Below, one piece after another: positions 3,794-20,982 of a stretch of 51,160 nt of DNA. A program made the translations under genes and the position numbers. This stretch comes from a virus, in the IMG/VR virus record IMGVR_UViG_3300049218_000313, positions 1 through 51,160 of that record, one strand, 5' to 3'. Each line of letters opens with the position of its first letter. Position 1 is the stretch's first letter. Below the pieces are notes generated by a model. It made no database searches. It was not told the DNA's origin and saw nothing but the letters and a program-made list of their open reading frames with translations.

Positions 3794-4918
3794 CTAGAAC
3801 TGCGTGATCTGCGGGAACTGCAGGCCGTTGTCGACCTGGTTGTTCGGCTGACCCAGCGAATCCTCGGAGAGGGCCACGAAGTTCGCGATGAGCCCGTCGG
3901 CGTTCGTCGTCGGGTTCGCGTCGGCCGAGTAGAGCTCGAGCTTGCGCACCGCCGCGATGTTGATGACCGCCATCGCGATGTCCTCCCAGGCCTGGAAGGT
4001 GATGACGTTGGCGATCTTGTCGATGTAGAACTTGGTGTTGTTCAGGACGTAGAACTTCCCGAAGAACTCCGGCTTCGTGAAGACGTAGACGTTCCCCGGG
4101 CGCAGGATGTCCGTCTTCACCGTGCGGATGTACGAACGCCCGAAGAGGGTGTTGTACTTGTACCCGTCGACCGCCGTCTCGCTCTGGAGACGATCGCCGA
4201 AGTCCTCGAGAGTCCACTGAAGGATGTCGTCCCAGTCGACCTCCGTCATCAGCAGGCGCTCCGAACGCAGGCGGTTGCCGTCCAGGAGCTTTAACAGGTT
4301 GATGACGTCCGGGCGCTGGATGGGGCGCACGGTCGCATCGTTGGTCGTCGCGGTGCGCGCGAGCTCGCCCTTGCGGACGGCGAACTCGACGACGCCGGTG
4401 CCCTGGATCTGGCTCGCGTTCAGCGGGGTCGCGGTGCCGCCGTTGGCCTGCAGCTGCAGGGCCTGGACGGCCGCCTCGACGTTGACCGTGAACTCGCGGT
4501 CCTCGACCTCCTGGATGTCCTTCACCGAGTTCTCCTCGATGATCTTCGTGATGGGCATCTCGTAGGCGAGGAGCTCCTGCTCCGTCTTCTGGAAGATCTC
4601 CGAGCTGACGGTGTAGAAGCCGACTTCTGCCTTGGGGCCGCGGATGAAGCGGGCCGTGGGGCTGCCGCGGAACGTCATGGTGAGCGCGCGGGACTGCGGC
4701 TCGACGTCCACGATCTTGACCAGGGTGTCGTGGTTGACCGAGCGCTGGCAATCGCTGCGGGTCACCTGCTCGGGGGGGATCACCTTGCGCGCGTAGGAAA
4801 CCTCGCGCAGGCGGTCGCGGATGTACGAGCCACCGTACTCCGCCATCTTCTCTTTGCCCTCGGACGACCCGAGCTTCTGCGTGAACAGCTCGTTGAGGAC
4901 GCGTGCCGGAACGGACAT
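3794..4918 (-). CDS. Major capsid protein (probable HK97 fold, 374 aa)
   Basis: Size, strong SD (GAGGAG), strongly biased codons and canonical order protease > scaffold > small head proteins > this gene > 3' hairpins. It has N-terminal KLG/KMA sites. Confidence 0.75.
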   Translation of the reverse strand: MSVPARVLNELFTQKLGSSEGKEKMAEYGGSYIRDRLREVSYARKVIPPEQVTRSDCQRSVNHDTLVKIVDVEPQSRALTMTFRGSPTARFIRGPKAEVGFYTVSSEIFQKTEQELLAYEMPITKIIEENSVKDIQEVEDREFTVNVEAAVQALQLQANGGTATPLNASQIQGTGVVEFAVRKGELARTATTNDATVRPIQRPDVINLLKLLDGNRLRSERLLMTEVDWDDILQWTLEDFGDRLQSETAVDGYKYNTLFGRSYIRTVKTDILRPGNVYVFTKPEFFGKFYVLNNTKFYIDKIANVITFQAWEDIAMAVINIAAVRKLELYSADANPTTNADGLIANFVALSEDSLGQPNNQVDNGLQFPQITQF

Positions 4919-5539: not shown

Positions 5540-5911
5540 CTAGCCCACGCCCCCGACGATGTACCGCTCCAGGTCCGTCGACCCCCCGGAGCCCATCTCC
5601 GGGTTGTCGTTGGTCAGTTGTGCCAGCTTCGTGCCCATGTCGGGACCGACGAGGTCCACGGCATGTTCGACCGCGTCGAGCTTGCCCGCCTCGGCGGCCT
5701 TCTCGAGACGGTCGGCGAGAGCGTCGACGGTGGTGTCGAGCTCGAGGCCCTTGCGGTGCATCTCCGACGCGAGCTTCTCGACCCGGTCACGGCGCTCCCT
5801 CGACGCCAGCTTGTCCTGCAGATCGTTGATGGTCGCCTGCTGTGCGCGCAGGGTCGCAGAAGCGTCGGTGAGAACCTCCGCGATCTGCGCGTTGCTGATC
5901 TTGTTCATCAT
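5540..5911 (-). CDS. Small coiled-coil head/scaffold protein
   Basis: SD AAGGAG precedes ATG 5911 (MMNKISNAQ). Heptad-like coiled coil with KLA/KAA sites. Confidence 0.7.
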   Translation of the reverse strand: MMNKISNAQIAEVLTDASATLRAQQATINDLQDKLASRERRDRVEKLASEMHRKGLELDTTVDALADRLEKAAEAGKLDAVEHAVDLVGPDMGTKLAQLTNDNPEMGSGGSTDLERYIVGGVG

Positions 5912-5919
5912 CCGCTCCT

Positions 5920-7284
5920 TCACGCCCCGGCCGCGGCGGCCGCAGACTCTTTGCCCTCGGCGGCCTCGGCGAGCTTCGACAGAAGCACGCGGGCCGCAGC
6001 GGTCTTGACGCTCTCCGCGGGGGCCGCAGCGGAGGCGAACTTCGTCCCGGCCTTGCCCGTGTGATCGAACGCGACCTGCAGCACGCGGTCGTGCTCGGCG
6101 CTGAGGGCCGGCTCGTTGAAGTACTTCTTGAGCTCCTCACGGCGCGGGCCGTGGGTCTCGCTCTTCTTGGCGTCGATGGCCGCCTGGTTGGACTGCACGT
6201 GGGAGGTGGGACCCCGGGGAGGGCCACCGGCGGGGTTGCCACCGGGCTGCCCGGCCATGCTGGTCTCCGGGGGCACCGCGGGGCCGGCCGAGATGCGGGC
6301 CGGGTTGATGGCGTCCTCGGCCACCTTGGTGCGCGCGAGCAGGTAGTCCGCGAGCGACGAGGGGGCAGAGCCCTCCTTGTTCTCGGGCTCGGACTTGTGG
6401 GCCGCCTCCGCCTTGTCGAGGCCCTTCTTGGCCTCCTCCATGCCCTCGGTCTCCTTCTTCTCGTGCTCGTCGGCAGCGAGCTTCGAGCGGATGAGCGAGA
6501 CCACGCCGGCGCTGGCGTGCTTGCCGTTTACGATGTTCGGCGGCATCTTGCCCGCCACGCCTGCGGCCTGGGTGTTCTCCATCTGAGTCGCACCGTTCTC
6601 GGTGCTCAGGCCCTTCTGCTGGCTCGGGTGCATTGGCACGACGTTCACGCCCTGGCCCTTGTGGTCGGGCAGCGACTTTGAGGCGGTCGCGTGCGACACG
6701 CCCGGAGCGCTCGTCTGCAGGTGCTCGGTCAGGCCGTAGGGGCCGGCCATGCTCGCGGCTTGCTTGAGCAGCTCGGCGCAGAAGTCGCACGCGCTGGCCA
6801 GCTTCTCGACATGCTCACTCTCGGGAGCCGACGCCATCTTGTCGCCGCACGCGCACTTCTCCTTACCGCACTTCTTGCACATCTTCCCCTCGGCGACCTT
6901 CTCGCTCTGGAGGTAGGCCTCCTCCGTGATGCGCACCCGCGCCGCGGAATCCACCATCGCGGCCTTCAACAGGTCCTGCAGCATCGGACGTCCAGCCATC
7001 TTTCCCATGAGATTCTCTCCTGCAACGGAAGCGCGTTTGGGCAGCATCTCAGCGCCCCGAGGGGCCATCGACTTCTGATCGGCGGACCCCGCATCGGCCT
7101 GCAGAGGAGCGCCCGTGTTCACTCGCGCGTAGTTGGTCCTGCCGGCCATACCTCTCGGCCCCCGTAGACCCGGCGCCATGGCCGGCTCGATACTGGGGGC
7201 TGGGAGCGGGGCAGCCGCGGTCGCACCCGTGGAAGAGGACAGCGGGGTCTCCGCTGCCGACTTCGAGAACAGGTGCGTGCTCAC
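5920..7284 (-). CDS. Scaffold/inner-head protein, low complexity and KxA-rich; possible internal in-frame start at 7008
   Basis: GTG start with a GGGAGA SD. A second strong SD (AGGAGAGAATCTC-ATG) lies at 7008. About 14 KxA/KxG sites and a CxxC..CxC mini-segment. Confidence 0.7.
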   Translation of the reverse strand: MSTHLFSKSAAETPLSSSTGATAAAPLPAPSIEPAMAPGLRGPRGMAGRTNYARVNTGAPLQADAGSADQKSMAPRGAEMLPKRASVAGENLMGKMAGRPMLQDLLKAAMVDSAARVRITEEAYLQSEKVAEGKMCKKCGKEKCACGDKMASAPESEHVEKLASACDFCAELLKQAASMAGPYGLTEHLQTSAPGVSHATASKSLPDHKGQGVNVVPMHPSQQKGLSTENGATQMENTQAAGVAGKMPPNIVNGKHASAGVVSLIRSKLAADEHEKKETEGMEEAKKGLDKAEAAHKSEPENKEGSAPSSLADYLLARTKVAEDAINPARISAGPAVPPETSMAGQPGGNPAGGPPRGPTSHVQSNQAAIDAKKSETHGPRREELKKYFNEPALSAEHDRVLQVAFDHTGKAGTKFASAAAPAESVKTAAARVLLSKLAEAAEGKESAAAAAGA

Positions 7285-7308
7285 GACTGCCCATCTCCCT
7301 TCACCGTC

Positions 7309-8163
7309 CTACTGGGCCCACTGGACCGGGTAGCCCACGCGCTCGAGCAACTCGAGGGCGCGGATCTCCACGGCCGTACCGACGTCGGGGGCCGACGCCA
7401 CCTTGGTGCTCTCCTCGACGAGGTTGAGCGTGAAGGCCGCGGCGATCTTGTTCGCGGCCTCCTCGGCATCGAAGCCGCCGTCGGCTGCGATCTTCTGCGC
7501 GCGCTCGAACGCGAGCTCGTCGATGGCCGAAGACGCCTTCTCCTTGTTGTGGTGGTGGACCGCAGCGGCCGCACCCGCGCCCACGGCGCCGGCACCGGCG
7601 GCATGCGCCGCACCACCGATGAGCTTGGCGGTGCCCTTGTGCATCGCCTTCTCCTCGTCGTGCGTACGGCCGACCGCCTTGACGACGCCCTTGCCCGTGC
7701 GCTCGAGGTGCTTGGCGAGCGCCTCGGGCATGCCCGCGGTCTTCTCGCCCTCGGGAGCCGTCGCCTGGGCGGCGATCTTGCGCATCTCCTGGACGTAGGA
7801 GTGAGCCATGACACGGCCCAGGAAGTCGGCCTCGGCCACCTTCTCGGCAGCGGCCTTCTTCTCCTCGTGCTCCTTCTTGGCCTCCTCGTGCTTCTTCTTC
7901 TCTTCGTCCTCCTCGTCGTCCTCGGAGGCGACCTTGGTGCCGCCGCCCTCGGCAGCCGGGGCAGCAGCGGCAGCGGTCTTGGAGACCCAGCTGTCGTACA
8001 GCTCCTGCACCTTGGTGTCGGGCATCGACTTGAGGTCGATGTTCGACTCGGAGGCGAGCTTGAGGAAGAGCTCCACGGAGGCCTGCTTCTCGAGGTCCTC
8101 CTGGGGGGCAGAGGCGGTCTTGTTGGTGCCGTAGTACTCGGCGAGGAATGCGTCCATGGCCAT
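7309..8163 (-). CDS. Scaffold/inner-head protein (284 aa), KxA-rich
   Basis: Directly downstream of the protease. Acidic and helical, with about 11 KxA sites and an internal Gly/Ala-rich cassette. Confidence 0.7.
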   Translation of the reverse strand: MAMDAFLAEYYGTNKTASAPQEDLEKQASVELFLKLASESNIDLKSMPDTKVQELYDSWVSKTAAAAAPAAEGGGTKVASEDDEEDEEKKKHEEAKKEHEEKKAAAEKVAEADFLGRVMAHSYVQEMRKIAAQATAPEGEKTAGMPEALAKHLERTGKGVVKAVGRTHDEEKAMHKGTAKLIGGAAHAAGAGAVGAGAAAAVHHHNKEKASSAIDELAFERAQKIAADGGFDAEEAANKIAAAFTLNLVEESTKVASAPDVGTAVEIRALELLERVGYPVQWAQ

Positions 8164-8166
8164 GGT

Positions 8167-11019
8167 TCAGTGGTCTCCCGCGATCTTGGCCAGCGTGTTC
8201 CTCGAGGGGAATCCCCTCTCCACGACGGCGGTCTGTTCGTCCTGACCGACTTCATCCCAGAAGGCCTGCTTCAAGTAGCCGACCGACAGCGGGGTGAAGA
8301 CGGATGCAGCAGGTGCCTCAGCGAGCTTGCGTAGATACTCCTCCGACGGCGCTGCCGTCGAAGCTACCAGGTCCTGCGTATGAGCGACAAGTTCCATGAG
8401 GCCACTGCGGTACGAGTTGTACGCAGCACCTATCTTACGCAGTAGCGGTGAAGGATGGGAAGAAGTCGCTGCGCGCTTTTCTTGGGGGGCTGTCGAAGCA
8501 ACAAGTACTCGCTTCTCGACAGCAGGCCCGAGACCAGAACGACTAGCCAGTAGCGGCGCGAGCAGACGCGCCAGAATCGGTGAGAAGAAGTCCGGTCCCA
8601 TCGGCACTGGCAACGTGTCGTCGACCTTCGGGAAGACCGTGTTCTTCGACTCAAGGTCGTCAGCAAGCGAACGCCTGCCCATCTGGATAAGGACGATCCG
8701 CTGGAACTCTCGCGGTCGTAGAACTACGCCCATCGCTGACGGTGTGGACAGCGCACTTTCTAGCGGTGCTCCCCCTAGCGCATCGAGAACATCCTTGGGC
8801 AGGTCCTTCTCGTTACGCGTGAGGACGGGCACCGCCTTGCCCACAAACTGGCTGGGCATCACATCCTTGGTGATCTCGGCGTCCTTGTCCTTGGCGAGCT
8901 TGCCGAGGAAGGCCAGCTTCAGCGCATCGACGCTGGCAGTTTTCTCCTCGGCCACACCCTCCGGGGAGAACAATGGCAGGAGCTCGTCGTCGCCGTCAGC
9001 GTAGCCGAGCTTCTCCGCGAGCTCGGCGCCGGGCAGGCTCCACACGCGGCCGTTGCCAGCGATCTTCATCATCGTCTTGGCCGTCTTGTCGGCGCCGATG
9101 AAGACGAAGCTGATGTCGAAGAACTTCGGGTAGTCGTTGTAGACGAAGACCTTCTTGCCGTTGGGCAAGATGCGGTTCATCGCCTTGCCGGCGTGCTCGC
9201 AATAGTCCTTGCGCGTTATGGACACGCCGCGAATGCCCTTGCCGTTCTTTTTGATGAGCTCCTTGTGGTAACGGAGCACAGCGTCGCCCGGCGTCTTGTC
9301 ACGCCCATGGACGAACATCGCCTGGGCCTTGCGATAGGTGTCCCAGTCGAGGCAGATGCTGCAGGTGTCGTAGGGCACCTTGCAGTTGTGCACTGCCAGC
9401 CCTTCGACAAGGTAGCTCTCATCCTCCTCCACCTCGAGGTTGAACACCTCGACCTCGGCGTAGATCGAGCTGATCTCACGGATGGGCGTGATGATGGATG
9501 GACGGTCTTCTTCCCACCCAACCATCCTGGAGTTCTTCGCGCGCAGAACCGTCGACGGCCGCACCTTGGCGGAGTAGTCCGTAAAGCGCCGCGCGTGCTG
9601 CTTGCCAAGGTGCACGACCCACTCGTCCGTCTCCTTCTGTACCAGCGCGGAGGGCTTGTGGTGCAGGCGGTGCACAGAAGCCAGCAGACCGCTGCGCGCG
9701 AGAATGAGCTGGACCTGCCATGCCAGCGCTTCCGAAGAAGTCGACCAGCCCAAGCTACCGTCGTCCGACCCGCAGCCGTCGCCATTCGCGTAGGCGCCCA
9801 GGAGCTCTAGCTGAAGCTCGGGGTTCCAGAAGAGTACTTCGGCCGACAGGCGCTTCTGCGTCGAGTACACGCCGGCCAGCCGCGTGCACCACGCCGCCAG
9901 CTGCGCGTCGTGAATGTAGATCGACACGGCGCAGTCCGAGTTCTTCCTCGGAGCAAAGGCAGGAGGGTTCTTCGTGCCAAACTCCGCGCAGAGCGCCGCG
10001 ATCTCCGTGTGCACTGCGTCGTCCTCGTGCGTCGTGAGCTCGATGCCGCACAAGTCCCCGGCCTGGTTGCGCAGCGGGTGCCCTTCGGCGAGGTAGTAGC
10101 CCAGTAGCCGCGCCGCAGCGCGCGAGGGTGCCTCACCCCCGATGTCGTTCGGAACGGGCGCCAGCGCGTAGTGGCTCAGGCTCAGGCATTCAGCATGGAC
10201 CCAGTCGGGGGACAGCGGCAGCACTGCCCGCCACGCCATGTCCCAGCCATCATTCCGCTCCTTGACCTGGTTCTCTCTTACTACGCGGAAGGGATGCTGC
10301 CGCGTGCAGTGAATCAGCGGCGTTGCTTCCGCCTTGATCGCGTACAGCTCACCCTTGTAGGGACGTCGATGGACAGAGGCCACAAGCCGCGCGCGCCCTC
10401 GATGTGTCAAGACACGTTCGCCGACCTGCACATCCTCGATGCACTTGCGCGAGCCATCAGCCATCGTGATGCGCGAGCCGGCGATGAAGCAGCCCATGCT
10501 CACGTCCGGGTAGTCGCCTGCCTTGAGCTTGTCCCAGACACCAACGCCGCCGAAGCGCTGGCACTTGTCCTCGTCGACACGCGCGACGAGCTCAACGCGC
10601 TTCATGCGCGAGTTCCACGCTGCCAGCTCCACCTCGCCGAACGCGCGGGTCGCGTCCTTGTTGCGGTGGTGGGCGTAGGGGTGCGCGAAGTAGAACGTCG
10701 GGAAACCGTAGCCCCAGTCCGCAGCCTTCGGCTTGTCGAGCAGGGGGTTGCCCGTCCAATCATCGGGCCTGTGGATGAGCGAGGCTTCGGGAAAGGCGTC
10801 GCCGTTGATGTTCGAGCCCCAGTACTCGCTGGCGCCCATCGCGTTGAGCAGCACGTACTGCGCGTCGGGCCGCGGCCGCAGAGAGGCGATGTACCTCGAC
10901 ACCTCGGGCAGCAGGAGAGGCTCGGCCGTCTTCTCGAAGGCGCCATCGGCAGGGCCGAACAGCGGGATGGCGTTCAGCCCCCGCTCGTCCTCTCCCTGGA
11001 AGAAGGCGACCTTGAGCAT
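8167..11019 (-). CDS. Prohead (capsid maturation) serine protease, intein-containing
   Basis: The spliced extein reads ...NINGDAF...HPYAHHRNKD...GEV...DVSMG|CKVPYDTCSIC...FFDISFV..GAD. This resembles HK97/herpes-type assemblin His and vSmG catalytic motifs, and the gene sits upstream of scaffold and MCP. Confidence 0.75.
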   Translation of the reverse strand: MLKVAFFQGEDERGLNAIPLFGPADGAFEKTAEPLLLPEVSRYIASLRPRPDAQYVLLNAMGASEYWGSNINGDAFPEASLIHRPDDWTGNPLLDKPKAADWGYGFPTFYFAHPYAHHRNKDATRAFGEVELAAWNSRMKRVELVARVDEDKCQRFGGVGVWDKLKAGDYPDVSMGCFIAGSRITMADGSRKCIEDVQVGERVLTHRGRARLVASVHRRPYKGELYAIKAEATPLIHCTRQHPFRVVRENQVKERNDGWDMAWRAVLPLSPDWVHAECLSLSHYALAPVPNDIGGEAPSRAAARLLGYYLAEGHPLRNQAGDLCGIELTTHEDDAVHTEIAALCAEFGTKNPPAFAPRKNSDCAVSIYIHDAQLAAWCTRLAGVYSTQKRLSAEVLFWNPELQLELLGAYANGDGCGSDDGSLGWSTSSEALAWQVQLILARSGLLASVHRLHHKPSALVQKETDEWVVHLGKQHARRFTDYSAKVRPSTVLRAKNSRMVGWEEDRPSIITPIREISSIYAEVEVFNLEVEEDESYLVEGLAVHNCKVPYDTCSICLDWDTYRKAQAMFVHGRDKTPGDAVLRYHKELIKKNGKGIRGVSITRKDYCEHAGKAMNRILPNGKKVFVYNDYPKFFDISFVFIGADKTAKTMMKIAGNGRVWSLPGAELAEKLGYADGDDELLPLFSPEGVAEEKTASVDALKLAFLGKLAKDKDAEITKDVMPSQFVGKAVPVLTRNEKDLPKDVLDALGGAPLESALSTPSAMGVVLRPREFQRIVLIQMGRRSLADDLESKNTVFPKVDDTLPVPMGPDFFSPILARLLAPLLASRSGLGPAVEKRVLVASTAPQEKRAATSSHPSPLLRKIGAAYNSYRSGLMELVAHTQDLVASTAAPSEEYLRKLAEAPAASVFTPLSVGYLKQAFWDEVGQDEQTAVVERGFPSRNTLAKIAGDH
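9385..10491 (-). mobile_element. Intein with LAGLIDADG homing endonuclease in the prohead protease (369 aa)
   Basis: Block A CFIAGSRITMADG, block B CTRQHPF, LAGLIDADG-like LLGYYLAEG and LLGAYANGDG, blocks F/G VFNLEVEEDESYLVEGLAVHN, +1 Cys. Confidence 0.92.
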
Positions 11020-11028
11020 CGCGATGTA

Positions 11029-11592
11029 CTACTTCTTCTTTCCGCCGCCGCCACTGAACGCGGATAGAATTGGAGTCCGCATCTTGTCGCGGTAGTCGAG
11101 CGACTTCTCGACGACTCCGCCGGCATGGAGCGGGTCGGTCATCATCTGGCGCATGTAGCTGCCGGCCACGATGGGGTCCTTGGCGAACATCGGATTGAAC
11201 GTGCGGAGCGTGGAGTAGGCCTGGTTGAAGAGCTTGGGCTTCTCCTGCTGCATCTCCTCAAGATCGGAGTTGTGCTCGAGCATCATGCGGAAGTCGCGCG
11301 CCTTGGTGGCAGCGTCGTAAAGCTTCTGTGCAGCAACACCGACGCCAGCTCCGATGAGGCCTGCACCGACGCCGATTGCGCCGCCGAGCGCCTTCCCACC
11401 AACGTTCATGCCGAGAGAGCGCATGTCACCGCCGGTAAGCTTCCCCTTACTGTCGATGTGCCCGCCCATGAGGCCTTCGCCGGCGCCGGTCAGGAAGTCC
11501 TTCAGCCGCCCGTCCTTCAACGCCCAGCCCTTCGGCCCAGCGGCCCTCTTCTCTGTCAGGTACTCCTCGAGGGGGTTCTTCTCACTGGCCAT
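11029..11592 (-). CDS. Virion protein with Gly-zipper/hydrophobic segment
   Basis: SD GGAGAATCCAGA-ATG at 11592 (MASEKNPLEEYLTEKRA). Contains ALGGAIGVGAGLIGAGVGVAA. The track's longer start overlaps the upstream gene. Confidence 0.7.
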   Translation of the reverse strand: MASEKNPLEEYLTEKRAAGPKGWALKDGRLKDFLTGAGEGLMGGHIDSKGKLTGGDMRSLGMNVGGKALGGAIGVGAGLIGAGVGVAAQKLYDAATKARDFRMMLEHNSDLEEMQQEKPKLFNQAYSTLRTFNPMFAKDPIVAGSYMRQMMTDPLHAGGVVEKSLDYRDKMRTPILSAFSGGGGKKK

Positions 11593-12778
11593 TCTGGATT
11601 CTCCACAGATGCTCGTTGTGGTCGCGGGTGCCTGGCACTTGCTGCAGGACCTTGTGTTTGGCCCAGCGAGCCGCGCTGGCCGCATGCCCCGGGCTGTTCT
11701 CCACATGCTGGTTCAACTCATTGCCGGCGACCAGGCCGGCGCCGACCAGGGCGGTGCGAGGGGCGGCAGCGGCGATGGTGCCGCCGACGTTACCCCCGAC
11801 CGCTCGGCCTAAAGGGCGAAGGGCTTCTCCCGCCCTCCCTGCAGCGTTCCACACCCCACCGAGCGCGCCACCGTCGGCGGTCTTGAGGTAGTTGTTCAGG
11901 CTCGAGAGATGCGTGCGCACCTCGGCGCGGGCTTCGCGCAGCTCCGCGAGCTTCGACAGCGCCTCGCAGAAGTCCCCGAACTCGACGACCAGGGGGTGCT
12001 CGTGGTTGACGACGCGCGCACCCGCGGTCTTGTCGACCGACGCGGTCATCTGCTCGATGCCGTGAAAGACCCCGTCGCGTAGCAGGCGCGGGGTGATGAG
12101 CGTGAAGGCCACCTTGATGTGGTCCTCGCTCGGAGCCACCGTCTGCCAGGCCTGCATCACCTCGCCCAGTGACACACCCGTGAGGGCGGCCTGCTTGACC
12201 TGGTGGTAGACCCGGTCCGCGAGGTCAGCGTACATGACCTCGAGTCCGCTAATCTGCGACTGCAGGTGGTCAGCGGCGCCAGCGAGCTTGTCCTTCAGCT
12301 CGATGACCTCCCCGTGGGGGTTCGCGAAGGGCAGCTCCGCCGAGCCCTCCTTGGCCAGCAGCTGGAAGAGCTCCGTCTCCGCCTTGCTCGAGGAGATCTT
12401 GTGCTCCGCAGGCGGCGACTCATAGTCGCCCGTGCCGCGGTCGAAGACCGTACCACCGCCGCCGTCGTTGAGGTCCTTCAAGATCTCCGACGGGTCTGCT
12501 GGGCCGCCGGGGAAGTCGACGACGTGGTGGGTGCCGCCTTCCTTCTTGAACTCCTCGAGGTACGCTGACGTGTTGGCGAACTCGATGACGCGCTTGACCT
12601 GCTCGGGCGAGAGCTGCGCCTGCTTGACCGTCTCGGTCACAGCCGCGGTCAGAGTCTTGTGTTCGCCCGCGCTCCAGCGCGCGGCCGCCTGCTTGCCCAG
12701 CACCTCGAGGTACTCCCCGGAGTGCGCGCGGGCATTGCGCTGCTGCATGAGTCCCTGAATGGGAAGGTCGCCGCTCAT
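11582..12778 (-). CDS. Inner-head/virion protein (398 aa), KxA-rich with Gly-rich C-terminal cassette
   Basis: SD GGGAG and about 10 KxA/KxG sites; first gene of the head sub-operon. Confidence 0.7.
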   Translation of the reverse strand: MSGDLPIQGLMQQRNARAHSGEYLEVLGKQAAARWSAGEHKTLTAAVTETVKQAQLSPEQVKRVIEFANTSAYLEEFKKEGGTHHVVDFPGGPADPSEILKDLNDGGGGTVFDRGTGDYESPPAEHKISSSKAETELFQLLAKEGSAELPFANPHGEVIELKDKLAGAADHLQSQISGLEVMYADLADRVYHQVKQAALTGVSLGEVMQAWQTVAPSEDHIKVAFTLITPRLLRDGVFHGIEQMTASVDKTAGARVVNHEHPLVVEFGDFCEALSKLAELREARAEVRTHLSSLNNYLKTADGGALGGVWNAAGRAGEALRPLGRAVGGNVGGTIAAAAPRTALVGAGLVAGNELNQHVENSPGHAASAARWAKHKVLQQVPGTRDHNEHLWRIQNGQ

Positions 12779-12819
12779 CTAGTGCTCCCTTACAAGTAGG
12801 CTACGTTACTGCAAAAGAC

Positions 12820-13521
12820 ATGGGAAGACGAAGACCCGAACCTCCGCCCGGATTCCTGGACAAGTCAGCCACCGCCAAGGAGCTCGACGTATCCATCGAC
12901 ACGGTGACCGCGCTGGTGCGCCGAGGAGCGCTCGTACCTCACTTCTTCGGCCAGCGCCGGTACCCCTTCTTCCGCATCCCGGACCTGCACGAGCTGTCTC
13001 TCGCACGCCGCGACAGTACCAACCTACAAGCTGTACGGGCCATGGCACTTCAGGCGCTTTCCGCCGCGCGTCGCACCGAGACACGGGTGGACGAGCTGTG
13101 CGCGCAGCTCGGCATCGACCACATCATCCTTCAACGAGACGAGAGCTCCCTGCGCACCTTGCTGCAAGAAGCCCAGCAGGACTTCGAGACCGCACGCGTG
13201 CGCGATGCTGGGTGGGTGCGGTACTGGAGCAGCTGCTTCTTCGCGATGGACGAGCTCTATCTCGAGCTCGCCGAGACGGTCACCGGCGTCAAGGACGCGT
13301 GGAAGATCTACCTCGACCTGGCCAACCGGCTCGCCAAGGCACTCGTCGAGGAGCAGGACGACGGGCTTCTCCTGGTCTCGAGGTACCTAGCCAGCGCCCA
13401 GAGGCATCTGGTGCACGTGAGCTACCTGCACTGCCGCCGCATGGGCAGCGGGCGCGTGGGCAAGGTGGTCTTCGACGGCCGCGCCTCGGCGGTCGATGAG
13501 CTGTCCGCGCTTCTGTTCTAG
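12820..13521 (+). CDS. HTH (MerR/excisionase-like) DNA-binding protein
   Basis: N-terminal LDKSATAKELDVSIDTVTALVRRGALVP...FFRIPDL winged-HTH pattern followed by a helical domain. Its stop overlaps the TerL stop in CTAG. Confidence 0.7.
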   Translation: MGRRRPEPPPGFLDKSATAKELDVSIDTVTALVRRGALVPHFFGQRRYPFFRIPDLHELSLARRDSTNLQAVRAMALQALSAARRTETRVDELCAQLGIDHIILQRDESSLRTLLQEAQQDFETARVRDAGWVRYWSSCFFAMDELYLELAETVTGVKDAWKIYLDLANRLAKALVEEQDDGLLLVSRYLASAQRHLVHVSYLHCRRMGSGRVGKVVFDGRASAVDELSALLF

Positions 13522-16391
13522 CCCTGGTCGATGGGTCCGCGGTAGCCAGTGCGCAGGGGACCCTGTCCCGGCAGCTCGCGGATGGGGCTGATGATGTCCG
13601 GGCGGGGGACCAAGATCATCGACACGAGCAGGCAGTACAAGATGGAGTGGAACGCATCGTCGGGGCGGTCGGGGCGGTGGTTGTACTGAATCATCCGCAG
13701 CTGGTTGTTGTACTCGGCGTAGATGTTCAGCATGTCGTTGGCGTAGGGGTCCTCGAACTCCTCCCAACGCGGGAACTCGAGCTGCTTGCGCTTGATGGCG
13801 TTGAACAGGTCGCTCATCACCTCGGTGCGCACCATCTGCCAGCGGCGGAAGGCAGGGTTCCAAAGAACCTTCTTCTTGCTGCGCGCCATGTACTGGTACT
13901 TGTGGATGCGCTTGGGGCCGAACTTCCGGGTGAGGTGGTCGTTTCGGTCGAAGCCGCCGCCGTAGTCGGCGCCGATGAGCCGGACATTGAAGTACTGAAG
14001 CATCTCGTCGATCTTAGCGAGCTGCGGCTCGGGGTCGACGTCCTCGCCGGTAAAGCGGTGGATGTAGAAGACGCGGAAGCGCTGGTTCACGTAGGTCCCC
14101 AGCGTCATCACCGTGTAGGTGTTCTCTCCGGTATTGCCCAGGTAGGCGATACGGCCGTTGCGCTCCGTCACGATGAACCCAGAAGGCACCGCGCAGCAGT
14201 ACACCTTGCCGTTGTAGGGCACGCGCGTGACGGAGGAGGACGGTGTGTTCAACTGGTAGTCGCGCCCTTCCGACCACAGAGCTCTCCAGCGCGTCTTGTG
14301 GTTGCCCTCGGCAGGCTTGTGCAAGCGAACGACGCAGCGGAGACCGAGGCGGATACAGAGCTCCTGGAAGTCTTCGCACAGACCCTTTGACGTCGAGTAG
14401 AACGCGCCGCCCGTGCAGCCTTCGCGCGGGTCCGTGTAGCCGTCCCCTCGAACAAGGGCCTGGAACAAGATGCGCAGCTGTCGCACCGACAGCTGCAGGA
14501 ACTGACGGGGGATGCGCTTGGTGTCCGATGACGTGCCGATGTTGTCGGCGTACCAGGACCAGTACTGCTTGCCGTAGATGGTCCAGTTCACGTCCCCGGT
14601 CTTCTCGTTAGGGAAGGCCGTGAAGGGGACCGCCATACGCTCCAGGCATGCCTGCATCAGCAGGTAGGTTTCGTGGTTGACCGTCTCCCGCTGCGACATC
14701 TTCACGCAGGACGGTCGGTCGCCGTCGTAGCAGACACCGGCCTCTGTGATCAGGTAGCCGAGCAGCTCCAGCCAGCTGTCCATCGTGAACGTGCGCGCAT
14801 TCGAGCCGGCATAGCCAGGTCCGCGTGGAACGGCGGGCAGGCAGAAGGTTTCTACTTCCTTCCCCTGCCAGGTGACGTGCCCCACGAACTGAACGTTGCC
14901 TCCACGCGCGGCGGTTTCACCGGCAGACTCCACGACCCACTGGTCCCGCTGTGCGACGGTCACGCGCATCTTGTGCACGTCGTTGACCAGCACGTCCAGA
15001 CCGCCCTTGGTCTCGAAGTGCAGTAGCGGCTTGTTCCAGTCGCGCACCGTACGCGCCAGAGGCAGGACGAAGGTCATCTCACGGGTGTCAGGGTCCCACT
15101 GCGCAACGCGATCTTCGTCGGTCAGGTCACGGAAGTACTTGAAGCCGCTCTCCGTGAGGATGCGCGTCTCCTCGTCGTGGCAACCCCAGTCGATACCGGC
15201 GAAGACGGGTTGGCTCGCCGCGAGCGCCTTGTAGGCGTCAAGCGCAGCGGGGTGCATCGTGATGTCCGGCTTGCTGCAGTCACGTACCTGAGCGCGCGTC
15301 AGCGGCCGCAGCCCCGAGTCGTACGAGATGCCGAGGACCTCGTTGTAGAATCGAGCTCGGTCGTACCGGCCGTAGTCGAGCATGATCTCGTCCCACGACC
15401 GCCAGGGCACCATCAGCTGCGGAATGCGGTAGGACTCGAAGATCCCCGCTTCCTGGAACTTCGACCACGTAGCATCTGGGTGCATCGGGTTGATGAGCTT
15501 CCCGCACTTCTCGCAAGACAACCCTGCGCGCTGGATGTTCTTCTCTCCGAGCACGTTCCACCACCGACCCGCCGCGCCAGCGGCGGCCGAGCCGCAGCGG
15601 TCGCAAGGCACCATCCATTCGCCCATGGTGCTCATGGGCTTGCCCTTGGACGTGCCGCTTCGGTAGTACTCGAGGACGTTGTCCATCCCCTTGGGGGTTC
15701 CCGCGTAGAGGAACCGGCGCCACTGCTCTGGAGCGTGGCTGAGCGACTGCTCGATGACCGGGATGTTGTCCGAGAGGATGTCCTGCAGCTCGTCGAGCGC
15801 CAGGCACCAAGCAGGAATGCCTCGGGTTCGGTCGGCATTGAGGAACGCGTAGCGCAGCGTGATCTTCGAGCGATTGATGAACTGCTTCTCGAAGACGTTC
15901 TGCTGCAGGAGCGACGTTGTGAACGCCTTCAGCACATCGCTGGTCTCGAGCGGCTCCTTGATGCGGTCAACCGAGAAGGTCTTCGTCTGCGTGGCCGAGG
16001 GGGAGACGTAGAGCGTGCGGAAGGCGGACACCATGCACGAGTAGGTGATGAGCCGGTTGCCGAGCAGCGTCGACTTCTCGACTTGACGGCCGCAGAAGAG
16101 CAAGACGCGCTTCGCCGACGTGTCGTAGATGTCCCGCATGTGCCGACGGCCTTCGAACGAGAAGTTCTCGTAGCCAAGCCCATCGGCGCGCGGCATGCGG
16201 AACGCCCACTCGGTGAACTGCGAGGGCGCTATGTTGGGCACGAACGGAGACTTCTTGTCTTTGTCCGGTGAGAAGGTGAAGTCCTCCATGCGGTCCGGCT
16301 CGGGGCACCAGGGAATCCCGCGGTCCGCGTCGTAGAGCTCCTCGTCTGTGAGCGCGCGCTCGAGCTCGTACTCGACCTCCGCCGGGGTCAT
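13518..16391 (-). CDS. terL: Terminase large subunit (lambda GpA-like ATPase plus RNase H nuclease), intein-containing; start uncertain
   Basis: Walker A-like CGRQVEKSTL, Walker B LALDE, coupling motif AGTP, CxxC..CxxC, FYNEVLG, nuclease GIDWG|TGE, ADYGGG and terminal PDDAFHS. Confidence 0.88.
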   Translation of the reverse strand: MTPAEVEYELERALTDEELYDADRGIPWCPEPDRMEDFTFSPDKDKKSPFVPNIAPSQFTEWAFRMPRADGLGYENFSFEGRRHMRDIYDTSAKRVLLFCGRQVEKSTLLGNRLITYSCMVSAFRTLYVSPSATQTKTFSVDRIKEPLETSDVLKAFTTSLLQQNVFEKQFINRSKITLRYAFLNADRTRGIPAWCLALDELQDILSDNIPVIEQSLSHAPEQWRRFLYAGTPKGMDNVLEYYRSGTSKGKPMSTMGEWMVPCDRCGSAAAGAAGRWWNVLGEKNIQRAGLSCEKCGKLINPMHPDATWSKFQEAGIFESYRIPQLMVPWRSWDEIMLDYGRYDRARFYNEVLGISYDSGLRPLTRAQVRDCSKPDITMHPAALDAYKALAASQPVFAGIDWGCHDEETRILTESGFKYFRDLTDEDRVAQWDPDTREMTFVLPLARTVRDWNKPLLHFETKGGLDVLVNDVHKMRVTVAQRDQWVVESAGETAARGGNVQFVGHVTWQGKEVETFCLPAVPRGPGYAGSNARTFTMDSWLELLGYLITEAGVCYDGDRPSCVKMSQRETVNHETYLLMQACLERMAVPFTAFPNEKTGDVNWTIYGKQYWSWYADNIGTSSDTKRIPRQFLQLSVRQLRILFQALVRGDGYTDPREGCTGGAFYSTSKGLCEDFQELCIRLGLRCVVRLHKPAEGNHKTRWRALWSEGRDYQLNTPSSSVTRVPYNGKVYCCAVPSGFIVTERNGRIAYLGNTGENTYTVMTLGTYVNQRFRVFYIHRFTGEDVDPEPQLAKIDEMLQYFNVRLIGADYGGGFDRNDHLTRKFGPKRIHKYQYMARSKKKVLWNPAFRRWQMVRTEVMSDLFNAIKRKQLEFPRWEEFEDPYANDMLNIYAEYNNQLRMIQYNHRPDRPDDAFHSILYCLLVSMILVPRPDIISPIRELPGQGPLRTGYRGPIDQG
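14133..15182 (-). mobile_element. Intein with LAGLIDADG endonuclease in the TerL nuclease domain (350 aa)
   Basis: Block A CHDEETRILTESGF, block B VNDVH, LAGLIDADG-like LLGYLITEAG and LFQALVRGDG, blocks F/G YNGKVYCCAVPSGFIVTERNGRIAYLGN, +1 Thr. Confidence 0.92.
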
Positions 16392-16446
16392 CTCCGATAG
16401 TGACCGCGGCTTCTCGTGTCTGTGCTGTATGTTGAACGAGGCCAAG

Positions 16447-16779
16447 ATGTCAGTACAACCTAACGCAAGAGTGGACGAGATGCTCAACAACCTCTTCGCG
16501 AGCGTACAGCGCGCAGGCCCCGTGTTCACCGGGCAGGCGCAGCTGCTGCCAGAAGGCGAGGGCTACAGGGTCGTCGTACCGCTGGTACCACACGCGTTCA
16601 ACGACAACGACCTGGGCTCCCGCGTGCAGAAGTCCCTCGCAAACTACATCCGCGCGTTCGTGCGCGAGAGCGGCTGGCGCAGCAAAGGCGGCAGCTTCAA
16701 GCGCGGTTACTTCACGCTCGACGTCGCCGCATCGAGGGCTGCGTCGAGCTCGTCGCAGAAGCGCAACGCCATCTTGTGA
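16447..16779 (+). CDS. Hypothetical protein (110 aa)
   Basis: ATG 16447 (MSVQPNARVDEML) with GAGG upstream and globular composition; overlaps the convergent gene by 73 nt. Confidence 0.55.
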   Translation: MSVQPNARVDEMLNNLFASVQRAGPVFTGQAQLLPEGEGYRVVVPLVPHAFNDNDLGSRVQKSLANYIRAFVRESGWRSKGGSFKRGYFTLDVAASRAASSSSQKRNAIL

Positions 16780-17138
16780 GGCTCGAGCACACGGCCGAAG
16801 CCGAAGGCGCGCAGCCACCAGCTGGCCTTCTCCTCGGTGTACGCGGCCTTGAGGCGGGGGAAGTCCGCCTTGAAGTAGTTCTTCGCCGTCTGCTCGAGCA
16901 CAGCAGGGAAGGTCTCGAGCCAGTAGCGCTTCGGGTCAGGCCCTGCGTTCACCTCGTCGGTGACGTAGAAGTGGTAGACCAGGTCACCTTCGGTCACCGC
17001 CACCTCGGCCGCGAACGTCGTGAGGTCCGTGACCGGCATGAAGTGGATGGGAATCGCAGGGAGGCTAGCTGTCTGCTCCCGCTCCACCGTCGCGTTGACC
17101 TGCTTGTGGCTGAGCGTCGTATTCAGGGGGGTCGTCAT
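16707..17138 (-). CDS. Hypothetical protein (true start may be 17039)
   Basis: Strong codon bias over the C-terminal ~110 aa; follows the 328-aa gene. Confidence 0.6.
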   Translation of the reverse strand: MTTPLNTTLSHKQVNATVEREQTASLPAIPIHFMPVTDLTTFAAEVAVTEGDLVYHFYVTDEVNAGPDPKRYWLETFPAVLEQTAKNYFKADFPRLKAAYTEEKASWWLRAFGFGRVLEPHKMALRFCDELDAALDAATSSVK

Positions 17139-18051
17139 GGTTCAAGTCCTTGAGGGGGGCGACGTCGACAGTGTGGTTGCCGCCGGTCAGCTGGTGGACA
17201 GATGGCATCGACACTGGGTTGGTACGTAGCGCGATCGACTGCAGCTGCGCACGCATCTCGTCTTCTGGTTTCACAACCATCTGCAGCAGCTCTTCGAGTA
17301 TCCGACTGCCCGTGATGTAGTTCAAGAACTTCTGGCTATCACCGGGCCCATCTTGGTGCGCAGCTTCGACCGCACGCATGACGGCGATGTCCCGCAGCTC
17401 CATCATCTTCTGGGAGAGCTCGAGCTTGCCGAGCTTCATGCCCAGGCGCATCTGCGCAAGCGTCGCCGTCGTGGGCGAGAAGGGCATGTCGGCTGCCACC
17501 TTGCGCGGGTCCTTGTAGTAGGCCGACATCAGAACCTTCTTCTTGTCCGCGAACGCCGGAACGTCGTCCACGGCGTTTTCGACGCGCATCTGCAGAAGTA
17601 CCCGCCACTGCGTGCTGTCGAGCAGGTTCACGTTCCAGAAGTAGTGCTGGTAGAGCTCGAGCGCCGCGGGAGTGGTGTACACCCCGCGGTTGCGGGTGAT
17701 GAAGGAAGCGATGGCCGAGAGAGGCACCTGCACGAGAAGCATCGCCTCAGCGAACTCCTTGGCGCGCGGCGTGCGCAGTAGCTCGAGGGCCATCTTCATC
17801 TCCAGCGTGCGCTGGAACATCCGCTGGATGCGTTCCTGGATGACGAACTTCAGCGACGGCAGGTGCCCTTCTTCCTCGGGGTAGAAGGGCGTAGGGGGTC
17901 GCAGGTCCGCTCGCAGGTCCGCGATGTATTCGGCCGAGATGAAGTCGAGGCCCTCTCTCAGGAGGCGCTTCTTGATGGCGGCCGTGTCGTACTTGTCGGG
18001 GTGAACCAGCAGGTACTTGATGTAGTACTCGGCCGGGCTGCGAAGGTACAT
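17065..18051 (-). CDS. Hypothetical protein (328 aa, helical)
   Basis: Starts 1 nt after the upstream stop and has phage-like codon usage. Its position near terL would fit a terminase small subunit, but no motif supports that. Confidence 0.7.
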   Translation of the reverse strand: MYLRSPAEYYIKYLLVHPDKYDTAAIKKRLLREGLDFISAEYIADLRADLRPPTPFYPEEEGHLPSLKFVIQERIQRMFQRTLEMKMALELLRTPRAKEFAEAMLLVQVPLSAIASFITRNRGVYTTPAALELYQHYFWNVNLLDSTQWRVLLQMRVENAVDDVPAFADKKKVLMSAYYKDPRKVAADMPFSPTTATLAQMRLGMKLGKLELSQKMMELRDIAVMRAVEAAHQDGPGDSQKFLNYITGSRILEELLQMVVKPEDEMRAQLQSIALRTNPVSMPSVHQLTGGNHTVDVAPLKDLNHDDPPEYDAQPQAGQRDGGAGADS

Positions 18052-18052
18052 C

Positions 18053-20317
18053 TCACTGCTTCTGGAAGGCGAGGACCTTGAGGCCCTCCAGCACGTCCTC
18101 CGTGGAACGGATGGCCTTCTCGAGTGCGGGGGTGGGGACCTCGCGCAGCCCGAGGCGGGCGGCGAGAAGGAGCTCGCACATCTTCATCTGGGCGTCGTCG
18201 ATGACCGGCATCGCCGAGATGAAGGTGCCGAGGTTCTCGGGGTTGAGGAAGCCTAGCGAGAGCACCGTGTCGACGGCGACGGGGTCGGGGATGACCGCCG
18301 CCTCCTTCCACAGGTCCACGCGCAAGTCGGGCGCGTTCTCGAGGACACGGACGGCAGCAGCCCCCGCCTCGTCGAGCGCGGCGGCGGCGATCTTGATGTG
18401 CCGCGCGACGCGCACGTTGACGGGAGTGCTCCAGGCGGCCGCCTCACCCAGCTTCTTCTGGATGTAGTCGGTCCCGGCGCCGAGTCCCGACAGAAGGAAC
18501 ACGGTGTCGTCGAGCGACAGGAAGTGCGTCTCCTCGCTGGCGAGCTTGTCGACCGGGAAGCCGTCAACGGAAAAGCTGTCGGCCCCCCCGTAGCGCAAGG
18601 TCACGGCAGCGAGCGCCTGGGCTGCCTTCTTCTCCTGCCCCATGCCCTCGGGGTCACCGACGAGCGCCGTCTCCTCCGCCTCGTCGAGGGGGAGCCAAGA
18701 GAAAGTGTCGGGAACGAGCAGCAGCCCGCTCTCGGGCTCGGGCGTAATGTTCTCGAGGTTGGGCTGAACGACGACCTGCACCTCGCGCCCATCGTAGGTC
18801 TCGGCGTGCAGGGTGACGCCGCCCTGCTCAGGCGAGTCCATGGTGGCCTTGATCGTCATCGGCACGGTCGCCTCGGCATGGCCATTGGGCAGAGTGCGGT
18901 AGAAGGCGCCCTTGCCACGAGGCGGCCCTTCAATCAGGTTGGCGCCCTCGCTGACCAGGACGCCCACGATGTCCCCCTGCACGGCCATCTGGCTGCCGTT
19001 GGTGAATAGAGCGATGGGCAGTGCGGTGCCGTCGGCGTCAATGAGGTTCGGGAAGACGTAGCCGATGAGCTCACGGCCCTGCTCGTCCTGCACCTTGTAG
19101 ATGCCGAACTGGCTGACGAGCTCCGGCTTCTCCGCCTCGGGACTCTCGGCCTCCTCCACTCCCTCGCCGAGCGCCATCGTTGCCGAGCCTGTGGTGTCGG
19201 CCGCGAGCACGACCTTGGCGCCGAGCAAACGCACGGCCTCGCCGCGGTCGAGGTGCCTCTCCTCGGGCAGCCAGCAAACGTGGCTGGCGGTCTTGAGCGT
19301 GTAGCCCTCGGCCTCCTTGCGCAGCTGTACGACCGTCGGCTTGATGTTTTGCAGCACGGAGCTGGCGAGCTTGCGCGTCGAGCTGGGCTCGTACTCGACG
19401 AGCATCTTGAGCGCGTCTCCCGCGGCCGCGCCATTGGCCACGTAAGCTGCCCAGAGTCCACGATCATGGGCAAGCTTGTTGGCGAAGGCGGTGTAGTCGG
19501 CCGAGCGAATAGTCGGCAGCACGCGGGCAAGCACAGAGCCAGTCTTGTGCATGCGGTTGAAACGCAGCCAGGCCTCCTCAGGCTCGCAGAGGTCAACGTC
19601 TGCGACGGAGCCGATCTTGTTGGCGGCGTAGGTGGCAACCGTCTGCAGCTTCTTGCCGAGCGGAGTGCCGACGTTGCGCGCGGCCGCGCTCTGCGTGAGG
19701 CGGGAGACGCGAGCCAGCCGCGCCGGGTCGGTGACCTTGCTAACGCCGGCGAGGCCCTTGGCCATCTCCGGCCCGAGGGCCTCCTTGACGCTGCCCTCTT
19801 TGCCCATGCCAACATTCATCGTCGCGCCACCGCCGCCGAACCCGTAGTTCTGACGGTACGGCGGGTAGAGCTGCCCAATCATGGACATGTCGCCGGGGCC
19901 GCGGCCGGTGATGTCGAAGGCCTGCGGGCGGAAGATGGTCTGGCGCAGACGGGCCTCGGTCAGGGGCAGCACCTTCGAGTCGTCGGTGACCAGCAGGTCG
20001 AGCGGCTGCAGCTTGCGGTCCTTGATGACGACGGGGATGCGCGCGCTCTTGATGCCCGCGGAGGCCATCGCGTCGGGGTCCGCACCGTGCTGGATCTCGG
20101 TCTTGTTCTGCACCTCGATGTGCCCGAAGCCGAAGCCACGCTCGGCGTCGACGCGGTCCATCGTGACGTGCGGCTCGAAGTCCGCGATGTAGGGAACCTG
20201 CTTGAACAGCTCCTGCATCAACTCGTTCGGCCACGAGTTGGCGTCCTCGGGAAGCATGACCTCACTTCCGAGTTTCTCAAAGACAACATCCGGCTCGAAG
20301 AACAGGGGCTGGGCCAT
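18053..20317 (-). CDS. Large virion/inner-head protein (754 aa), KxA/KxG-rich
   Basis: SD GAGAGGGAATCCC-ATG and about 13 KxA/KxG sites; lies in the structural operon. Confidence 0.7.
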   Translation of the reverse strand: MAQPLFFEPDVVFEKLGSEVMLPEDANSWPNELMQELFKQVPYIADFEPHVTMDRVDAERGFGFGHIEVQNKTEIQHGADPDAMASAGIKSARIPVVIKDRKLQPLDLLVTDDSKVLPLTEARLRQTIFRPQAFDITGRGPGDMSMIGQLYPPYRQNYGFGGGGATMNVGMGKEGSVKEALGPEMAKGLAGVSKVTDPARLARVSRLTQSAAARNVGTPLGKKLQTVATYAANKIGSVADVDLCEPEEAWLRFNRMHKTGSVLARVLPTIRSADYTAFANKLAHDRGLWAAYVANGAAAGDALKMLVEYEPSSTRKLASSVLQNIKPTVVQLRKEAEGYTLKTASHVCWLPEERHLDRGEAVRLLGAKVVLAADTTGSATMALGEGVEEAESPEAEKPELVSQFGIYKVQDEQGRELIGYVFPNLIDADGTALPIALFTNGSQMAVQGDIVGVLVSEGANLIEGPPRGKGAFYRTLPNGHAEATVPMTIKATMDSPEQGGVTLHAETYDGREVQVVVQPNLENITPEPESGLLLVPDTFSWLPLDEAEETALVGDPEGMGQEKKAAQALAAVTLRYGGADSFSVDGFPVDKLASEETHFLSLDDTVFLLSGLGAGTDYIQKKLGEAAAWSTPVNVRVARHIKIAAAALDEAGAAAVRVLENAPDLRVDLWKEAAVIPDPVAVDTVLSLGFLNPENLGTFISAMPVIDDAQMKMCELLLAARLGLREVPTPALEKAIRSTEDVLEGLKVLAFQKQ

Positions 20318-20328
20318 GGGATTCCCTC

Positions 20329-20982
20329 TCAGGACGTCAACAGGATAGCCGACAGGGAGGCAGAAGCCGAAGGGGACTTGGTGAGGATCATGACGCCGTA
20401 GACCTGGTCGGTGGGGTAGATGGCCGTCGGCGAGCCGATGGGGCCCGTTGTCAGGGCCTGGTAGTCGAAGCCCGAGTCCTCGAGCGTGGTGAACGAGTCG
20501 TAGCCGACAGCAAGAAGAACGAAGGGCCCGGCCGTGAGCGCTTCTTGTAGTTCCGCGAGCAGGTTGATGGCTGGCAGCTTCACCGCGAGCGCGGCCTCGA
20601 TGAGCAAGCCCACACCGCTCACGTTCAGCGACAACCCAGCGCTGATCGACAGCGACGCCGAGAGCGTAGCTGCGAGCTGGGCGGCGATGTTGGGCAAGCC
20701 CAGTGTGAGGATGAGGCTGACCTGCGCCTGGATCTGCACGAAGGCGGCAATGAGGGCCTCGAGGGCCGCGAAGGGGTCAGAGATCTGCAGGGTGACCTGC
20801 GCCTGCACACCGATGGCCGCACTAAGCTGCGCCGAGAGGTCCGCTGCGAGGGCGCCCAGACCGAAAGAACCCGTCAGCATCAAGTCGAACTGAGCGAGCA
20901 GGGGGACCAGAAGACCGATCTGCGCAGTAAGCCCGACGTTGATGGCCCCGAGCGGGAACTCTCCGATGTACGCGACGCTCAT
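20329..20982 (-). CDS. Hydrophobic Ala/Leu-rich baseplate-associated or membrane protein (217 aa)
   Basis: ATGA overlap with the spike gene; almost no charged residues. Confidence 0.65.
   Translation of the reverse strand: MSVAYIGEFPLGAINVGLTAQIGLLVPLLAQFDLMLTGSFGLGALAADLSAQLSAAIGVQAQVTLQISDPFAALEALIAAFVQIQAQVSLILTLGLPNIAAQLAATLSASLSISAGLSLNVSGVGLLIEAALAVKLPAINLLAELQEALTAGPFVLLAVGYDSFTTLEDSGFDYQALTTGPIGSPTAIYPTDQVYGVMILTKSPSASASLSAILLTS

Follow-up and report, generated by a model that had tools for sequence, protein, structure and literature searches.

The window analysed here, the first 51 kb (51,160 nt) of the 137-kb IMG/VR record IMGVR_UViG_3300049218_000313 (CheckV completeness estimate 74%), originates from an uncultured large soil phage, an Arash-like myophage whose head-assembly region it represents. 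In this region the three-residue motif Lys-x-Ala (K-x-A) was found to be strongly enriched in a small set of proteins. We concluded that K-x-A is very probably a functional motif and that it is probably the cleavage motif of a neighbouring candidate prohead protease, encoded by g8167 (8167-11019); copies of the motif flank variable basic inserts, here called cassettes, within acidic proteins. This reading builds on the motif itself, its restriction to one set of genes, its deep conservation, the fold of the protease, the modular gain and loss of cassettes and the depletion of the motif in their interiors. All genes of interest are located on the minus strand, and the GC content of the window is approx. 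64%. By capsid protein we identified 243 relatives in IMG/VR, of which the best 80 were used, each with 10-kb flanks. Among cultured phages the closest by the same protein are Salmonella phage Arash, with 28% identity, and three Vibrio phages, with 27%.

In the seven motif-rich proteins Lys was followed by Ala at offset 2 in 82 cases, compared with 22-42 cases at offsets 1 and 3-7. When residues were shuffled within 20-residue blocks the offset-2 count was 31.8±4.8, and the value of 82 was reached in none of 500 shuffles. No peak at offset 2 was detected for the pairs A..K, R..A and E..A, and seven control proteins gave a flat distribution. Over the whole record the enrichment was confined to 7 of the approx. 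115 genes supported by their GC content at third codon positions (GC3). A motif of the known type, L/I-x-E or A-x-E, was sought and not matched; the form found was phi-[E/D]-K-x-A-[S/A/E]. The logo has a hydrophobic residue at -2 and E/D at -1, then K, L/T/V and A, followed by S/A/E (with Ser 4.4-fold enriched, at +3) and a further A.

The same enrichment was observed in cultured phages, with the motif again in the form phi-[E/D]-K-x-A-[S/A]. In the syntenic genes of Arash the offset-2 count was 42 versus 13-25 elsewhere (null 19.5±3.8), and L, M or I stands at -2 in 32 of these 42 sites. The syntenic genes of Vibrio phage D69 gave a count of 48 versus 12-28 at other offsets; among five genes checked downstream of its capsid gene, four had no K-x-A at all (0.3-1.7 expected) and the fifth had one. 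As the GC content differs among the window phage, Arash and D69, the motif is not caused by base composition. The major capsid protein (3794-4918; phrog_2522 major head protein) has a single N-terminal site, K24-M-A26 (4841-4849), with a conservation of 0.98 in 64 orthologues, and the equivalent site is K27 in both Arash and D69. All three phages have one such site at residue 24-27, approx. 10 residues ahead of a conserved R-x-[KR]-L-R-E, and we regard K24-M-A26 as a candidate propeptide cut. One short motif is common to the N-terminus of the capsid protein, the candidate protease itself and the core or scaffold-like proteins and is rare elsewhere, and the same holds for Arash and D69.

g8167 encodes a protein of 950 aa with Hint and LAGLIDADG matches. 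Searches of g8167 in Pfam and PHROGs gave intein or unknown-function matches only, and the profile of the protease alignment matched nothing among PDB sequences at E up to 1. Most orthologues are approx. 575-590 aa long and do not contain window residues 177-545, which we therefore interpreted as an intein. The intein with its LAGLIDADG domain (9385-10491) would split the N-domain in two (10492-11019 and 9088-9384); it was inserted directly after an invariant DVSMG, with C, S or T at +1. A K-x-A-rich disordered linker (8878-9087) and a helical C-domain follow. Approx. 50 relatives are without the intein, and a few have one or two inteins, at the same or at other positions, in orthologues of up to 1390 aa.

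To assign a fold, an intein-free orthologue (L003) was modelled with AlphaFold2 using a 29-sequence alignment, with a mean predicted local distance difference test score (pLDDT) of 70. The model comprised a confident N-domain, a linker (residues 271-352) at pLDDT <50 and a helical C-domain. Residues 47-285 had T4 gp21 (5jbl_B) as their top structural match in VIA-align (Z 8.2, root-mean-square deviation 2.8 Å, 131 of 164 residues), and the next seven matches were herpesvirus proteases with Z 6.1-7.5 (herpesvirus matches overall Z 5-7.5). Foldseek alone gave weak matches with E-values of approx. 0.7. Residues H117/H118, S174 (in DVSMG) and H216 are invariant in the 29 orthologues and stand in the order required for a His-Ser-His triad, which they may form. 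Since no sequence family matched, we treated the assignment as one at the level of the fold, by which g8167 is a candidate gp21/assemblin-type prohead serine protease (clan SH). Its conserved K-x-A sites (window K645, K693, K707 and others) are located in the disordered linker; one more site, K30, lies in the low-confidence N-terminus.

The initial annotation had described five compositionally distinct segments in proteins of this region, each said to start right after a K-x-A and mostly to end at the next one. All five are exact minus-strand translations at the positions given below, and all start directly after a K-x-A. They are also distinct in composition, being net basic (+2 to +5) in host proteins with a net charge of approx. 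-17. Their ends were less uniform than described: KMA and KTA are strict sites, KIG is a K-x-G, one segment runs to the C-terminus of its protein, and the segment of g7309 ends at K-A-S|S-A, not a strict K-x-A. When orthologues were compared, the proposal that cassettes vary between K-x-A sites was largely borne out for g5920, g7309 and g18053, where indels lie between motif copies, and failed for g37430.

g7309 (7309-8163) encodes a 284-aa acidic scaffold-like protein with 13 K-x-A versus 5.9 expected. Its cassette (residues 144-206, 7546-7734) lies between K141-T-A (7735-7743) and K209-A-S|S-A (7531-7539), the latter a position at which most orthologues have K-x-[A/G/S]-S-A. It consists of a basic amphipathic stretch (hydrophobic moment, muH, 0.72) followed by a Gly/Ala run. 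Among orthologues the region from RKIA to the anchor K-x-[AGS]-S-A-phi-D-x-L-A is between 16 and 154 aa long. Nineteen of 39 orthologues have an uncharged Gly/Ala run of 16 or more residues, and in these the region is net basic. The net charges of the variable region and of the remaining protein were anticorrelated (Spearman -0.82, n=39, kinship ignored). An MPEAL-like element is present in 14 orthologues, not always at this position, and in 13 of them a K-x-[A/G] stands at most 3 residues before it. In seven relatives the g7309 orthologue has no Gly/Ala run, and one is found in the variable middle of the g5920 orthologue instead; in several of these seven the run comes after a basic stretch and is followed by KK-K-E-A|S-A.

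g5920 (5920-7284) encodes a 454-aa scaffold-like protein with 15 K-x-A versus 6.8 expected. Its Cys4 cassette, E132-D148 (residues 132-148, 6841-6891), has the pattern CxxC-x4-CxC, a candidate zinc knuckle or Cys4 metal site, and is located between K129-V-A (6892-6900) and K149-M-A (6832-6840). A Cys cassette with three or four Cys, of this pattern or a three-Cys variant, was detected in 13 of 30 distinct orthologues in at least five sequence versions, with no match in Pfam. Ten of the 13 are bracketed by K-x-[A/G] within 9 residues upstream and 11 downstream. Where the cassette is missing, a single site is found at that place in 13 of 17 orthologues and two or three sites in the other four. 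In alignment columns the sites that bracket cassettes in these proteins had shown low conservation (0.18-0.31). This was rejected as an artefact, resulting from presence or absence of cassettes and from misalignment in variable regions; inspection of the unaligned segments reversed that reading.

The 754-aa protein of g18053 (18053-20317) is likewise rich in K-x-A (12 versus 4.5 expected). A hypervariable insert, S176-G260 (19538-19792), is located between K173-E-G|S and K258-T-G|S. The segment quoted in the initial annotation (residues 181-233, 19619-19777), a 56-aa piece, was found to be an inner fragment of this larger insert. The stretch from GKEG|S to K-x-[G/A/S]-S|VL contains no insert in one relative (L085), an insert of 85 aa in the window and one of approx. 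190 aa in another relative (L086). For g18053 no family was found in Pfam or PHROGs, tblastn against phages was empty, ESM Atlas gave no usable match and the Arash genome no match. g18053, assumed earlier to encode a head protein, is a possible rather than an established head-protein gene, and its identification as portal was ruled out, as Arash gp204, the annotated portal, matches 33471-35555 instead (tblastn, E 5e-83, 31% identity). This portal protein is not enriched in K-x-A (3 sites versus 3.2 expected), and its gene is 13 kb away from the terminase and capsid genes.

g11582 (11582-12778) encodes a 398-aa all-helical acidic protein with 8 K-x-A, and its family hidden Markov model (HMM) matches Arash gp220. 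After K299-T-A (11876-11884) it continues into a basic, Gly-rich and hypervariable tail (residues 302-398, 11585-11875), whose identity among orthologues is near zero while its length is kept. Six of the sites are conserved at 0.9 or above and K299 (L-K-x-A) at 0.73. In an AlphaFold2 model (mean pLDDT 78.6, all-helical) four sites were placed at helix ends; one of these is K299, at the end of a long helix and the start of the tail. A Foldseek search of this model against BFVD gave nothing informative. The remaining segment (residues 120-168, 38420-38566) is located between EKVA and RKTA in g37430 (37430-38923), a 497-aa protein encoded two genes upstream of the portal with 16 K-x-A versus 4.7 expected, whose minus-strand frame we take as the real one because of its GC3 of 0.90. 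This segment is not hypervariable: together with both sites it is conserved in the two full-length orthologues.

Inside the cassettes the ratio of observed to expected K-x-A was 0.47 (g7309), 0.83 (g11582 tail) and 0.19 (g18053 insert), compared with 2.5-5.3 in the flanks, and this depletion was seen despite the richness of the cassettes in K and A. We concluded with good confidence that the cassettes are discrete modules bounded by copies of the motif. Their description as Gly-zipper membrane peptides was not upheld. The maximum hydropathy of the g7309 run was 1.22, which is below the transmembrane range. A value of 1.75 (Kyte-Doolittle, over 19 residues) was obtained for g11029 (11029-11592), whose 187-aa product has a transmembrane-like glycine-zipper stretch (LGGAIGVGAGLIGAGVGVA). 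In Pfam, searched with the cassettes and g11029 up to E = 5, no Gly-zipper was found and the only match was DUF2207_C at E 0.15. The family HMM of g11029 matches Arash gp221, which is a virion protein. The open reading frame listed for g11029 is longer (225 aa, 11029-11706) and reaches into the end of g11582. As orthologues are conserved from residue 39 onwards, the start is probably M39 (11592).

As the best composite explanation we propose the following scheme. The 950-aa gene with an intein at DVSMG would encode a prohead serine protease of the T4 gp21/herpesvirus-assemblin fold, whose cleavage site is most likely phi-[E/D]-K-x-[A/G, sometimes S]-[S/A/E], cut after the small residue by analogy with assemblins. 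The motif studs the linker of the protease, the capsid-protein N-terminus and several core or scaffold-like proteins that are acidic and helical. Within the latter, its copies flank net-basic inserts poor in K-x-A, namely the amphipathic and Gly/Ala cassette, the Cys4 knuckle and the Gly-rich tail. As the head matures, the acidic helical parts would be reduced to small pieces and each cassette would be freed as one intact peptide of 20-100 residues. Because they are flanked by probable head-protease sites, the inserts may be released as small peptides inside the capsid, and we slightly favour their intact release over the other explanations taken together. The cutting itself and the exact cut positions we infer. 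Whether the peptides would stay with the DNA, neutralise charge or be ejected is speculative. The initial annotation went further and suggested that the released peptides, one of them metal-binding, could be ejected to act on membranes or host defences, with the acidic scaffold as carrier; this we consider unlikely. Equally unlikely is a fuller form, in which acidic scaffold or core proteins carry a variable set of cationic peptides (an amphipathic and Gly/Ala peptide, a Cys4 peptide and Gly-rich tails), the peptides remain with the packaged DNA and are ejected into the host to act on its membrane or defence systems, and cassettes are exchanged between phages at protease sites.

Several observations weigh against the release of intact cassettes by this protease. 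The protease was assigned by fold only and with middling Z. The counts among orthologues ignore phylogeny. The Cys cassette itself contains an internal K-C-G and K-C-A, and internal K-x-G or K-x-A were also found in some cassettes of relatives. A strict K-x-[A/G] follows within 12 residues after only 16 of 30 Gly/Ala runs (null median 18), the other runs being followed by K-x-S-S-A variants or by a more distant site. Of the eight conserved sites of g11582, the model places four within helices of pLDDT >90; such sites would be hard to reach or may have a different role. Finally, Arash is in culture and virion liquid chromatography-tandem mass spectrometry data exist (PMC10585845), and peptide termini were sought in that paper and its supplement, which contained protein-level identifications, annotation and sequences only. 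The "coverage" values in its Table 2 were considered and found not usable for mapping propeptides.

The best surviving alternative, which we regard as possible though not likely, accepts K-x-A as a protease site and takes the cassettes as unconstrained low-complexity spacers, degraded or expelled with the scaffold and with no role as peptides. Sites and indels would then coincide since both favour exposed, disordered linkers. This agrees with the hypervariable length and sequence of the inserts, with their absence from about half of the orthologues and with the result that no cassette matched a family. It also agrees with what is known from T4 and SPN3US, where propeptide and core fragments are generally expected to exit the head (PMC9958956, PMC10052503). 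Against unconstrained spacers speaks the depletion of K-x-A inside cassettes that are rich in K and A. So does the recurrence, in very divergent orthologues, of the MPEAL-like start, of CxxC..CxC and of a Gly/Ala run flanked by His or Lys. The occurrence of the same cassette type in two different host genes and the tight anticorrelation of cassette charge with that of the remaining protein also speak against it.

We consider it clearly unlikely that K-x-A serves helical core proteins as a structural or binding motif, for example in repeated contacts with the shell or with each other, with the inserts staying covalently attached as loops or tails. The four conserved g11582 sites within confident model helices would be in line with such a role, and the hydrophobic residues at -2 and +1 in the logo could suit helix packing. 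Against such a role, K-x-A was also found in the protease linker that is predicted to be disordered, at the borders of non-homologous inserts and, in three distant phages, at one and the same N-terminal position of the capsid protein. Furthermore, the motif resembles the assemblin sites cut after Ala (A-S, A-T) and follows the P3-x-P1 logic of gp21-type proteases. In T4, gp22, which is largely helical, is degraded by gp21 to small peptides together with gp67 and gp68. Recombination at the DNA level between short motif-encoding repeats, with no meaning at the protein level, would account for the single motif copy kept in orthologues without an insert, as in a deletion between repeats, yet it is highly improbable, given that the flanking codons in the window share just AAG and GC(N), approx. 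5-6 nt, that no DNA microhomology was found at the cassette flanks in the window and that protein-level conservation of the motif extends over genomes of differing GC content.

The genes described above are arranged on the minus strand in the order g18053, g17065, g16707, large terminase, g11582, g11029, g8167, g7309, g5920, g5540, g4948 and major capsid protein. Searches of all head-module proteins and of the isolated cassettes in Pfam and PHROGs gave matches to intein, terminase and capsid only. g5540 (5540-5923) encodes a 127-aa helical head-module protein with 4 K-x-A versus 1.0 expected, and its family HMM matches Arash gp225. The large terminase (13518-16529; GpA_ATPase, 1003 aa) has a weak LAGLIDADG_3 match at residues 687-756; considering this match and the length of the protein, an intein is probably present there too. 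Between the terminase and g11582, a gene for 233 aa (12820-13521) stands alone on the plus strand within the minus-strand head operon. A 217-aa protein (20329-20982, minus strand) has very few charged residues (0.9% Lys) and is rich in Ala, Leu, Ser, Gly and Ile; no family matched it, and orthologues were found in six portal-side loci.

The single-chain RNA polymerase (22245-28685, minus strand) is overall not enriched in the motif (11 sites versus 14.5 expected), yet its residues 7-9 form a K-x-A (LDPKEAFEH) at which the N-terminus may be trimmed. Beyond the window, at 120768-126543 of the genome, an extended motif, phi-x-x-[ED]-phi-x-K-x-[AGS], was seen in three proteins: AFVDELEKIA at residue 25 of 228 aa, AFADELEKISA at residue 47 of 246 aa and AFYVRDLRKQA at residue 375 of 486 aa. 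The occurrences in the proteins of 228 and 246 aa may belong to N-terminal propeptides or to tags that target packaged proteins.

Head maturation by a protease of the gp21/assemblin type is well known, and few specificities have been mapped. To our knowledge, the mapped phage examples all cut after Glu. The lineage described here, with more than 240 uncultured relatives and the cultured groups of Arash and Vibrio D69, appears to use a Lys-x-Ala/Gly site, which is nearer to the cleavage after Ala that is the rule in herpesviruses. Should the motif be the cut site, sequence alone would suffice to predict the processed virion proteome, and these phages would have a compact way to encode variable internal peptides within scaffold proteins.

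Arash and Vibrio D69 share with the window phage a syntenic head module, the same K-x-A enrichment and the same N-terminal site in the capsid protein, although the capsid proteins are just 27-28% identical and neither the motif nor processing has been described for either phage. The virion proteome of Arash includes gp218 and gp220-gp226, whereas gp219 is not in the table (PMC10585845). One of these virion proteins, gp224 (L088, 16317-16937), is a basic Gly/Ala-rich protein of 206 aa with a gene of its own, flanked by those of the scaffold-like gp223 and gp225. In composition it is similar to the embedded cassettes of the window phage; no significant homology to the tail of g11582 or the cassette of g7309 was obtained (E 0.17 or worse).

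In T4, gp21 trims the internal proteins, Alt, gp23 and gp24 in addition to degrading gp22, gp67 and gp68, and injection of the DNA is accompanied by that of basic internal proteins (PMC9958956). The window phage resembles T4 in having a protease of the same fold encoded beside scaffold and capsid genes and a three-residue motif common to the N-terminus of the capsid protein, the protease and the core proteins. A further possible parallel is the fate of the core in T4, where many cuts are made in the acidic part, whereas the small basic internal proteins are retained and then injected (PMC9958956). The two differ in the motif, which is L/I-x-E in T4 and K-x-A/G here, and share no sequence similarity. 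Moreover, the basic internal proteins of T4 (IPI-III) are encoded by separate genes and carry an N-terminal targeting tag, whereas here the basic parts are embedded in acidic core proteins.

The protease of Salmonella phage SPN3US (phiKZ-like), gp245, cuts after A-x-E (P3-x-P1) with Ser preferred at P1', and several copies of the motif and several cuts are found per propeptide; many head proteins are processed, and some propeptide fragments persist in virions (PMC10052503). Like the window phage, SPN3US is a large phage that carries an RNA polymerase in its virion, and its P3-x-P1 motif with Ser at P1' resembles the putative site proposed here. It differs in having Glu at P1, in the removal of mostly N-terminal propeptides and in its unrelated lineage, and variable internal cassettes have not been described for it.

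For pseudorabies virus (PrV) assemblin the sites YLQA-T and VQA-S have been reported, with cleavage after Ala and before Ser or Thr, and herpesvirus assemblins free themselves from a C-terminal scaffold part (PMC4498786). The candidate protease has the same fold as these enzymes and is likewise joined to a C-terminal scaffold-like part by a linker that would be cleavable, and A-[S/T] cleavage matches the A-[S/A] of the K-x-A logo. Assemblins have two or few sites with a hydrophobic residue instead of Lys at P3, and they release no peptide cassettes. The general scheme of head maturation fits the window phage with a different motif, and the unusual part is the presence of variable basic peptides, flanked by sites, within acidic core proteins.

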